NCBI GenBank assembly: GCA_964016885.1
Contig: OZ024743.1
Location: forward strand, 275,776,001-275,840,000
Direction of reading: 5' to 3'
DNA: 64,000 nt
From: Eledone cirrhosa
Lineage: Eukaryota
Both the position numbers and the translations under genes were made by a program. The notes under the pieces are model-generated. The model worked only from the letters and a program-made list of their open reading frames with translations, ran no database searches and was not told the DNA's origin. Shown here one piece after another: positions 18,880 to 28,059 of this stretch; within the stretch, counting starts at the first letter, position 1; every line of letters begins with the position of its first letter.

Positions 18880-19042
18880 CTTCATCCTCACCTGTTGTTT
18901 CTCTTTTCCTCTTCTTTTTTTTTGTATGTGAGGCATAGTTGTCTCGTGCACTCCAACCAGGGTATAGTTGCATGTGTAACTCTTTTTCCTTGCGAGCCAT
19001 TTCATAGTATTTGGCCTGTTCAGCTCGATCTAATGCGTGCCA
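18880..19042 (-). CDS. Tcf: TCF exon B: C-terminal half of HMG box plus canonical basic tail/NLS (mutually exclusive copy)
   Basis: Acceptor tttgtttctatccag|TGG. Donor GAAG|gtaaaa at 18880, or CAG|gtgagg at 18892 in the same phase. Encodes [54 protein letters not shown]. Confidence 0.95.
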
Positions 19043-19365
19043 CTGGATAGAAACAAATACGGGTTTAAGCAGACCCCCCAACAACAACTTCAACATAACA
19101 CTCTTATAATTTAAACAATATTTTAAAAAATATATATATATTCAGTTTGTAGTATAGGATGAAATTATAAAGGATTTGTTACAGCATTTAAAACTAATTT
19201 GTGGGTTTACTAATTTATAGAGAAATTTGCTGAATTGATAATACATGGACTACAAAGGTTTGACAAAAGGAAAAAAATATAATGAATCTAAAAATTAAAT
19301 GTACTAACAAATTGATTTCATCTTAATATAGTAAAGCTGTATAAAACTATTTCTGGTTATATATA

Positions 19366-19466
19366 TAGGGTGTCCTAAAAACATGTATACACACTTTGAT
19401 TACCTATACAGGCAATATTTATTAGAATAATGTTGAAGTGTGTATATATTTTTTTGGAACACCCTG
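19366..19466. mobile_element. Tc1/mariner-type MITE
   Basis: Same TIRs and internal sequence as 4937-5033, with TA flanks. Confidence 0.8.
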
Positions 19467-20123
19467 TATGTAATTTTTAATGGCTGGTTCAAAGAAAGGT
19501 TGTGTTTAGCCTTTTGGGAATGGAACAGTTCCAGAAATGATTTCCCTCAAAGTATTATGTCTTGATTCATTTTATTTAGATAAGCAGACCAGATTTGATA
19601 ATAAAAAAATACCTATATGAAATGTTGACAATAATTCTCAGAACTAGTAGTTGGCAACTGAACATTAAAATATTGATTTATTTTGATAAGTAGATCAGGT
19701 TTATCAACAAGAATACCTGTATTAAATATATGCAATATTTTGGTAAACAGACCAGATTTGTTCAAAGGAAATTCCTATATTAAACACAAGCAATATTTTA
19801 TGCCCAAACCAGAATGTATGTGAGCAAGTGGATGTGTATAATTTGGGAAGATGGTAGCTCCAATTAAGTACAGTCTTGATTTGTGACAATCCATCCAACT
19901 TATGTCAGCGTGGAATAGCAGACTTTAAATGATGGTAATCAGATTGGTTTATATGAAATATAGGTAACATTTCTGAAACTGATTTATTTGATGTGACAAA
20001 GAACAATTTAATAGGAGTAAGGAGAAAAAGTTGACTGAATAAAGCTAGTATATTTCAAATATTCTTTTTTTATCAACTTCAAAGATTTTCCAATTGAAAT
20101 AACAGGGTATTGTACTTAATACA

Positions 20124-20351
20124 TTAACCCTTTGGCATTTACATTACTCTATATTTACTATTGTATTTTCACAGGAAAGGCTTTACCTCACATAATTAAC
20201 TCACATAATATTGAATCTATGAGATTCTGATATTATTTATTTTAAGAACAATACCTTAACATCACTATGATTGGCCGGTTATGGCTGGTTTGAACAGAAA
20301 AAGGTGAGAGAATTCTGGTCGGATATGGCTAGTTTAAATGCTAAAGGGTTA
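20124..20351. mobile_element. piggyBac-type MITE
   Basis: TTAA-CCCTTTGGCATTTA ... TAAATGCTAAAGGG-TTA; same family at 52460-52745 and 61135-61345. Confidence 0.75.
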
Positions 20352-24564: not shown

Positions 24565-24605
<41 letters not shown>

Positions 24606-26450
24606 GAAGCAAAAATTAATTTTAAAAAAAGGTTAAATTGAATAAATAAAACAATCCATAACATATGTCTTTGGAACCTGGAAAATCTTAATTCTTCTTC
24701 CAGAAAGAATGGAATGGTATTGATCATAAAGTGGTATAACTGCATCCTTAAGTGGAAAAACAAACAGCAGTCAAAGAGTTATAGATTACTGAAAAATTAA
24801 AAATATATATTTGTTTTTTTTTTAGAGAAAGTACTAGTAGTAGCAGCAGCAGCATATTTAAAATGTCTTACTGGAAAAAAAGATGTTTAAAAAAATGAGG
24901 AAAGAAAGGTTATATATATTTAAATCCGTAAAAAGTTTGTCAGTTGGATTCTATATATTGGTCCTGGATAGTAAACACCACAAAAGAAAATGAAGTATGG
25001 TTTTGCCTTTATCTGACTGACAACCCTCATTGGAACAGTGTATCACATATATATATATATACACATTTCAAGTGGATGAACCAGGTGTAAGTCATGTAGA
25101 AGTCATCCCTATATGAAATAAATCATATACATATGTATGTGGCAATCAATGAAATGCACTTTCACACATCTTTCTCTCTCAAAAGAAGTCTAAATTCTAC
25201 ATTTATTAACACTTATATCACTTACATACGTCTAACACAAGTAGTTGATTAAACCAACCAACACATGCACCCCTTATGTCGTCACTTGACCTGATATAAA
25301 TAAATAAATGGCAACAAGAATTCTCCTCAAATTAAAGCTCTGACTGTCTTAAACAACCAACACATTGAATAATGTAGTTTCTCGTTAGATGCCTGAATAA
25401 TAATGATAATAATAATAAAGATTGGATGTTCATGGCTGGAATACTTCTGATCATAGATCTGTTCAATCAGAGATGACCTTGAGATTAAACAAGCAGAAGT
25501 TTTAAGCTGGAAACAACACTTGAATTTCTTACCTTTCTCAAAAGATATATTTTTTCAATTAATAATAATTATCTCTTTTAAACAGATGAATTATTTTTAA
25601 ACATCACAAAAAGTAAATGAAAAAATATTTTTGTCTGTGCGTGTGTGGTGTGTCTCTCAAAGTAGTGTGTTCAATTTTTCTTTATGAAAGGGGAGGGGAA
25701 ACGGAATTATTAACATAAAGTAAATAATAGTTTCAAAAGATTTTAGCAAATACAGATTCCGAAGGTTTGTGAGACATTGTGTGAGAATTGCTCAACACAT
25801 GCCACCATAGAAAAAACAAATGTAAAGGGAATATGATGATGATGATGATGATGATAATGAAGGTAGGTAGGTAGATAGATAGATAGATAGATAGATAAAT
25901 AGATAGAAAGATGGATAGATAGATGAATAGACAGATTTAGGTAGATAGATTTTGATAGATAGATATAACAAAAACAAAGCATGACATAAGATAAGCTATT
26001 TTAGGTATATATATATATCATTTTAAGAAATATAAAAGAAAAAATATATAAAGTATGGACAGGTTCATACAAGCCCATTCATATGTAAAATGTAGGCGCC
26101 TAAAGCTTGAATAAGACTGATGCCAGATGTAAAATGTAAACCCCCCCCCCCCCATACATAAAAAATTTTGTTAAGCTGGTAAGAGGCCCAAGTCAGTAAT
26201 CAGTACTAAATAAATAAATAAAATTGATGCATGGGTTGCAGGTATGTAGTGCAGATGATGTACTTACAAGTAAAAGAATTAAAAAGAAAATCTACCATTT
26301 AAGACAAGTCCCTGCCTAACAGGAGCATAGGAACAGAAGAGAGAGAATGAGCTCACTGATTGGGAGTTGAAATATTGCATCTCAGTGAAGGAGAAAAGAT
26401 ATTGTTACTAACATTTGTTCAGGTTTTGGATAAAATACTTCTTAAGCTGT

Positions 26451-26765
26451 TATTTAACAATCAGCTGCATTATTAAACATTCAGCCATAGTATTAAGCAT
26501 TAAACTGCCATATCAAGCATTCAGCTGCAATATTAAGCATTCAGCTGCAATATTAAACATTCGGCTACATTATAAAACATTCAGCAGCATTATCAAACAT
26601 TCGGCTGTAGTATTAAGTATCCAACTGTAATATTATCCATCCAGCTGTACTCTTAAGCTGCTATCTATATTACTGTAATATTTATTAAACACTCAACTGT
26701 AATATTAAATAGGCAGCTATATTATGAAGTATTAATTTGCAATATTGAAGATACAGCTGTATTAC
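26451..26765. repeat. Degenerate 20-bp minisatellite (~15 units)
   Basis: Consensus TATTAAGCATTCAGCTGCAA in an exact 20-bp register over 26451-26650. Confidence 0.85.
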
Positions 26766-27896
26766 ATAGAAGGAAATGAACAGAAATAACATAAGTAGAG
26801 GGACAATTTAGTCTTGTCAGGGACAAACAACCTCTCTAGTGCCAGCGGCATGATAATATGTATCCAGTTCATGTTAAGTGGTTAATGATAAGAAGGACAT
26901 CAAGCCGTAAAAACCATGCTCAAAATAACAACATACACAGCAGCAAAGTTAGGCTAGTTTTTCTTGTTGTTGTATATGGCAGATGATGAAAGACTGAAAA
27001 ACTGAGACCCATCCAACCCATACCAGCATGGAATAATAAAAATAAAAATTAAATGATGATATAGATATTTATATAGATGCACAAATATATATAATTATGT
27101 ACATATGCACACATACACACAAAAACACATACAAACAAAAACAATATTTTCTCTGAGAGTATAATAAACCAGTATTGCTTATATAATAATATTGATAACA
27201 ACACAAATTTTTGGGAAAAAGATTAATTATGTTGTATGTATATCAGCTGATGAAGGAAATTAAAGAAAAGGTCAAGTAATAGGGCTAGGGCGGTGATGGT
27301 GGTGGTGGTCACTGCTGTTGTAACAACATGTTTCTTTTTTTTTTATCTATCAGATTTCATCCATACAATTTATTAAATGAAACAACACTATAACAGCTTG
27401 GAGATGAGCAATTTTGTTGTTTTTTGTTCCCTTATTTTCAATAATAATAATAATATTAATAAAATAATTTTATTATTTTATGATTTTAGGCACAAGGCCA
27501 GCAATTTTGAGGAAAGAGAAAGTTGATTAAATGGACCCCAGTACTTAACTGGTACTTTATTGTATCGACAAACAAGGATGATAGGCAAAATAATAACAAT
27601 AATTATTTCTTTATTGGCCACAAGGGCGTGCATATAGGGGACAATAATAGCAATTTTTGAATTAAGAGTGAGTTCCCAATAGAATTCGCTGAAGAACTGC
27701 AGTATGGTCAAACCCCGAAAGTAAATATATCAAAATTTATGAACAAATTTGTAGATTCTGAAAAGCCACATCTCCAGGTATATAATGAAAATGGGAAAAA
27801 AAAAAAAGGAAAGAAAGTCACACAGAGCAATTTCTACTGAAAAAGGAGAAAAAAAAGTTAATTAAAAACAGTGCCATTCATTACCATTATTCATAC

Positions 27897-28059
27897 CTGC
27901 ATCTTCAGACTGCTGCTTCCCTCGTTTGATTTTCTTTTTGGCATATCTGCCATAATTATCGCGGGCACTCCAGCCAGGATAGAGCTGCATGTGCAAGTCT
28001 TTCTCTTTACAAGCCATGTCATAATATTTCGCCTGCTCTGCCTTAGTTAAAGCATGCCA
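27897..28059 (-). CDS. Tcf: TCF exon A: C-terminal half of HMG box plus divergent basic tail (mutually exclusive copy)
   Basis: Acceptor ttttctcttctcttcag|TGG and donor GCAG|gtatga. 163 nt encoding [54 protein letters not shown] with no stops. Not shown in the ORF track. Confidence 0.92.

Follow-up and report, generated by a model that had tools for sequence, protein, structure and literature searches.

Our findings point to an RNA-based switch in a TCF gene of the octopus Eledone cirrhosa, located in a 64,000-nucleotide (nt) stretch of genomic DNA (hereafter the window) that carries two versions, A and B, of the exon completing the DNA-binding HMG box. In the intron between them lies a 98-nt sequence, here termed element X, that is complementary to the donor regions of both exons. 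We propose that X acts as a central donor-masking switch, a mirror of the one in ATE1, that picks the end of the TCF DNA-binding domain, and that invertebrates with a single TCF gene have independently and repeatedly duplicated either the 5' or the 3' half of the HMG box, each set locked by its own RNA pairing, as a substitute for the four vertebrate TCF/LEF genes. To this combined proposal we give a probability of roughly 0.4, and its components differ in strength: A and B are very probably both used as alternatives, and the odds lean towards X enforcing the choice by hiding either donor region through predicted pairing. The exon pair itself is real, has already been annotated and belongs to a known type that has parallels among protostomes; the new part is the donor-masking central element.

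Two probably alternative exons complete the HMG box

The encoded protein has a TCF-type HMG box and basic tail (phmmer against LEF-1, 2LEF, E 8e-40), and exon A is 98% identical to TCF7L2-like RefSeq models of Octopus sinensis. Both exons lie intact on the minus strand where the original prediction had placed them (Table 1), with AG acceptors, GT donors and open frames entered in phase 0 and left in phase 1. A search of the 3.0-Gb genome found no copies of the 3' HMG exon but these (two matches among eight candidates scored), and neither a third copy nor a second 5' HMG exon was found in the window. The frameshift expected from direct co-inclusion is equally borne out, as joining A to B leads to a stop at codon 62 or 66, while skipping of both leads to a stop in exon D. 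The shared length of 163 nt on which the prediction had also drawn is correct as one length of each exon, but not for homologous ends: in A as in B, a second in-phase donor lies 12 nt beyond the first, giving 163 or 175 nt for A and 151 or 163 nt for B. The ends that correspond by homology are thus 163/151 and 175/163, and the equal length is a coincidence that arises because A's first donor was matched with B's second. All four donor ends occur in Octopus gene models, and two squid-like proteins likewise show both ends of B. A minor-spliceosome lock is ruled out, as every donor (GTATGA, GTAATG, GTGAGG and GTAAAA) is of the U2 type in sequence, and steric exclusion of A together with B is ruled out by the 8.85-kb intron that separates them.

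A and B share 31 of 36 residues up to RDNY and 5 of 18 beyond, with 17 synonymous and five non-synonymous codon differences in the core, in agreement with the earlier description. Over the 36 codons the proportion of synonymous differences (pS) is 0.90, which is saturated, against a non-synonymous proportion (pN) of 0.075, and the exon A protein is identical at 53 or 54 of 54 residues in O. sinensis and O. bimaculoides models. This supports the suggested old duplication under purifying selection, whose date the saturated synonymous divergence could not provide.

Mutual exclusion, which had been proposed from the frameshift alone with the complementary intron element unseen, is matched by gene models, which are predictions rather than reads. 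The eleven O. sinensis RefSeq isoforms divide into five with A (X1, X3, X5, X7 and X9) and six with B (X2, X4, X6, X8, X10 and X11), none containing both or neither, and all three O. bimaculoides records contain A; the A-bearing records of both species are full-length frames with a C-clamp. All eight O. vulgaris models seen carry B only, and B but not A is present in one Argonauta, one Doryteuthis, two Sepia and two squid-like records, the tally including 15 of the 19 members of one protein cluster. The warning that A is easy to miss in annotation thus fits O. vulgaris and not the other two Octopus species. For other cephalopods, exon A was found in none of 18 short matches, 120 listed of 495 longer matches and 150 listed representatives, a search of protein clusters, which hide isoforms, and by which absence is not demonstrated.

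A central intron element complementary to both donor regions

An inverted-repeat scan, of which 25 of 641 pairs were listed, directed attention to positions 24355-24444, within what we define as element X, a sequence for which a DNA search of the genome found a single copy and which contains no tandem repeats. In the pre-mRNA it is predicted to form long duplexes with the donor region of either exon (Table 1), each spanning both tandem donors. Among 3195 scanning windows across the 64 kb, X is the top partner of both regions (-53.1 and -54.2 kcal/mol, the next non-overlapping partners reaching -43.7 and -45.2 and the next joint partner -36.1), and its joint alignment score is the highest of 2597 windows covering 104 kb (55.5 vs 39). 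Its score was reached by 0 of 100 shuffles of either donor region, and its joint score by 0 of 97 repeat-free random pairs (best 50.5 vs 60). X aligns to the two donor regions with scores of 65.5 and 60, against 44 for the donor regions with one another, and it contains segments specific to each. The pairing is stronger on the transcribed strand (-55.2/-61.6 vs -42.9/-55.7) and remains favourable net of self-folding (-38.6 and -36.5).

X cannot pair with both targets simultaneously, and therefore the donors of one exon would be hidden while those of the other stay free. Pairing of X with A's donor would yield the canonical B isoform, and pairing with B's donor the A isoform. In transcription order X follows A's donor by 3.4 kb and precedes B's by 5.5 kb, and being transcribed between the two, it would be freed to mask B by early commitment of A's donor. 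Frameshift and decay would serve as a back-up that clears transcripts with double inclusion or double skipping.

Several observations weigh against this role for X. When simple repeats are kept, the score is reached by 13 of 150 random pairs placed 9 kb apart and by 12 of 300 in a second set, and all 12 of the latter touch tandem repeats. The margin of B over its shuffles is thin (56 vs a maximum of 54), G.U pairs and A.C mismatches are balanced in the B duplex (3 and 3, compared with 3 and 0 for A), and the two donor-side introns alone are not significantly alike, as 76 of 1000 shuffles reach their score. A control, the donor of exon D, likewise finds a strong partner at another site (54). 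Of the two bivalve-like loci described below, L064 has an intron element whose matching stretch in L077 (748-768) does not pair significantly (-21.4 vs -25.5). The distances of 3.4 and 5.5 kb, together with a local hairpin in the B flank (about 18823-18870, -17 kcal/mol), may prevent X from pairing, and we acknowledge that the case draws on one genome and on predicted pairing.

Competing explanations

The most serious competitor, which we nevertheless consider unlikely, takes A and B as true alternatives kept apart by protein splicing regulators and frameshift-triggered decay, with X a neutral inverted relic of a donor region. Every double-inclusion or double-skip product does have a premature stop, the G.U bias of the B duplex is weak, and an inverted copy dating from about when the exons were duplicated would look like both donors. 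However, a neutral relic as old as exons whose pS has reached 0.90 should have decayed, and if it were recent it would be expected to match a single donor, yet X is closer to each donor region than the two are to one another. It is improbable that the choice is instead set mainly by other pairings, with X secondary, whether through a docking site before exon C or through two palindromic transposon copies upstream of A and B. The candidate docking site pairs with both exon flanks at an energy not attained by any of 20 shuffles or any of 120 real intron segments, and no inverted match in the region is longer than that between the two transposon copies (55 nt, 80%); yet the docking duplex is 16-20 bp long and rich in G.U, its best control comes close (-20.6) and the site belongs to one of two layouts tried, while the transposon is common, with four copies in the window and 78 matches from 40 of 2076 candidates scored.

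It seems likewise improbable to us that exon A, as a copy seldom used or regulatory and unproductive, lacks a distinct protein function. Its terminal branch is the longest in the trees (0.59-0.66), its Cys at position 17 occurs in 1 of 149 distinct cores (Arg in 134), and it is missing from the O. vulgaris models and from the Argonauta, Doryteuthis, Sepia and squid-like records listed above. On the other hand, a pN of 0.075 beside a saturated pS, a near-identical A protein in three octopus genomes, and its use in 5 of 11 O. sinensis and all O. bimaculoides records weigh against this reading. The donor-masking switch is the explanation that we favour.

Possible consequences for the DNA-binding domain

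Four of the five core differences between A and B are residues found in other TCFs, and the low identity of the tails arises partly from a register shift. Residues 37-48 hold seven Lys or Arg in both tails, the commonest value among distinct TCF-like 48-mers (136 of 211), and because both keep these seven basic residues, loss of nuclear import, and with it the altered import that had been envisaged, is unlikely. LEF-1 binds the minor groove with its first helix and reaches the major groove with its basic tail, and the length of the linker between HMG box and C-clamp may set Helper-site geometry (PMC4154663). The C-terminal part of the tail binds CDX (PMC8421206). Counted from the gene models, this linker varies from 22 to 53 residues across the choices of exon, donor and exon D. 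We infer that both isoforms should read the same core site but differ in tail sequence and C-clamp spacing, and they may differ in affinity, partners or Helper spacing.

Duplicated HMG exons in other protostomes

Gene models contain three versions of the 3' HMG exon in Mercenaria, Dreissena and Mya and two in Ruditapes and three scallops, and three tandem copies are present in the DNA of 2 of 80 metagenome loci (L064 and L077). The 5' HMG exon is varied instead in four oyster, three abalone and three snail sets, and it is also duplicated in locus L003 (L003:5416-5805); no species in the sample duplicates both. Two copies of the 3' HMG exon occur in 31 of 33 arthropod models, the two mites having one, in a set that was chosen with a two-copy query, is thereby enriched for pairs and includes no Drosophila sequence. 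The parallels that the original prediction named in pangolin and an annelid are sound for arthropods, where the same exon is duplicated, but not in detail for Platynereis, which alternates the 5' HMG exon (PMC5996498).

In trees of 48 columns, spiralian exons, A included, stand apart from arthropod exons (100/98; 96/97 in a second tree), which favours separate origins of the exon pairs. Copies 2 and 3 of the clams form a group that excludes A (97/90). Approximately unbiased (AU) tests on these columns nevertheless rejected none of three placements of A, whether with B (p 0.39), clam copy 2 (p 0.31) or pancrustacean exon 1 (p 0.117). K6 and G37 of A recur in clam copy 2, as do D14 and D21 in Mya and Ruditapes, and these common residues may reflect a shared origin. 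Many of the metagenome loci L008-L082 represent several recurring TCF types, one with K6 and G37 like A, that appear to be separate genes rather than exons in tandem.

The two three-copy loci contain complementary intron elements of their own. An element between copies 1 and 2 of L064 (about L064:2971-3010) pairs with the PGWSARDNY codons of all three copies at -40.3 at worst, against -23.9 for the best of 15 shuffles, with 14 G.U pairs and one A.C mismatch. The acceptor of the second, middle exon finds its best partner in the next intron in both loci (L064:4510-4542 with 5322-5354, -34.4; L077:1138-1156 with 1949-1967, -30.9), with paired differences between the loci. No donor-directed joint element in L064 or L077 was an outlier. 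As these elements target sites other than those of X, they support the type of mechanism and not X itself. A perfect 22-nt inverted repeat (L064:2709-2730 and 5987-6008) brackets the second and third exon copies.

Relation to known splicing systems

In human ATE1 a central-element switch has been proven by mutagenesis (PMC7797038). As proposed for the octopus gene, ATE1 combines duplicated mutually exclusive exons (7a and 7b) with an inter-exon element complementary to both splice-site regions (R1-R3-R4), but it is the 3' splice sites that are hidden there, whereas X covers 5' splice sites, in the form of tandem donors, and would do so over kilobases. The ATE1 system is also conserved across vertebrates and experimentally tested, whereas X is predicted in a single genome. 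Competing RNA pairings born with tandem exon duplication are a published model for Dscam, 14-3-3zeta, Mhc, MRP1 and srp (PMC6071210), a likeness that the proposed octopus arrangement shares; docking and selector sites, however, flank the cluster and their pairing selects an exon, whereas X is internal and its pairing would silence one. A Dscam-type docking site upstream was not apparent, as the first 300 nt of the 29017-28060 intron paired with the acceptor-side flanks at -12.5, within the range of shuffles.

Among TCF genes, pancrustacean pangolin/dTCF carries the same exon, from the W of helix 2/3 to the basic tail, twice in one gene, although those exons group apart from the spiralian ones. 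Platynereis Tcf, with evidence from cDNA PCR, is likewise a single spiralian gene that swaps part of the HMG box, there the beginning and in the octopus the second half with the basic tail (PMC5996498). The clam and scallop clusters, known from RefSeq isoforms and from L064 and L077, likewise use tandem versions singly in gene models and have complementary intron elements between copies, but the predicted targets are exon bodies and the acceptor rather than donors. Our literature search, whose scope excluded most subscription journals, which may describe the fly pair, returned no paper on octopus TCF exons, a 3' HMG pair or a central donor-masking layout, and the available portions of PMC3896468, PMC6783274, PMC3303723, PMC9013439, PMC7404189, PMC12772994 and PMC13762713 make no mention of octopus TCF exons or a 3' HMG pair.

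Other features of the locus

Downstream of the window, C-clamp exons (CRARF...RKKKC) and terminal exons are present in the neighbouring loci L083 and L084. After the CRARF exon, alternative terminal exons (L083:3700-3759; L084:1847-2145) continue with SMHEK... or RKKKC... to give either complete or half C-clamps, and use of the last exon in an alternative frame leaves isoforms X10 and X11 without a C-clamp. Upstream of 29204, no TCF exon was matched in the remaining 35 kb of the window (29204-64000). Tandem repeat makes up about 30% of the window. Copies of the palindromic miniature transposon lie at 4935-5035, 19364-19468, 28233-28314 and 47516-47597; two of them precede exons A and B by 170-430 nt and might pair with each other across A. 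Within the octopus introns, the best joint partner of the A and B exon bodies is at 16437-16457 (-26.9 kcal/mol; mean -10.9, standard deviation 4.1).

Table 1. Exons and candidate RNA elements of the E. cirrhosa TCF gene (window positions unless a locus is named)
Feature	Position	Strand	Remarks
5' HMG-box exon (helices 1-2; 187 nt)	29204-29018	minus	single copy, phase 0 donor at 29018
Exon A (HMG helix 3 and basic tail)	28059-27897	minus	proximal donor, 163 nt; O. sinensis X3, X7
Exon A 12-nt extension (GMNN)	27885..27896	minus	distal donor, 175 nt; O. sinensis X1, X5, X9 and two O. bimaculoides records
Exon B (canonical HMG helix 3 and basic tail)	19042-18880	minus	163 nt with distal donor; 151 nt with proximal donor (ending 18892)
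Donor region of A (both donors and downstream intron)	27821..27899	minus	predicted partner of element X, 69 bp, -55.2 kcal/mol
Donor region of B	18825..18894	minus	predicted partner of element X, 60 bp, -61.6 kcal/mol; holds local hairpin
Element X	24347..24444	minus	single-copy intron stretch between A and B, complementary to both donor regions
Candidate second docking site, before exon C	5369..5386	minus	pairs with 27789-27771 or 18759-18735, -22.3 kcal/mol each
Common downstream exon C (AKARLPWYFNDVTT)	5175-5134	minus	phase 1/1
Optional exon D (72 nt, linker)	1829-1758	minus	
C-clamp exon, after exon D, beyond window	L083:4722-4802		

Implications

Swapping of one HMG-box half is a feature of the gene models of octopus, clams, scallops, oysters, snails and pancrustaceans. 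If confirmed, element X would add to the known RNA-controlled arrangements a layout in which a shared central element hides donors. The 98-nt element also offers a direct handle on the choice of exon, as double inclusion would be expected once it is blocked, and a weakened arm should commit splicing to one isoform; its manipulation would permit isoform-specific tests of Wnt output in a cephalopod.

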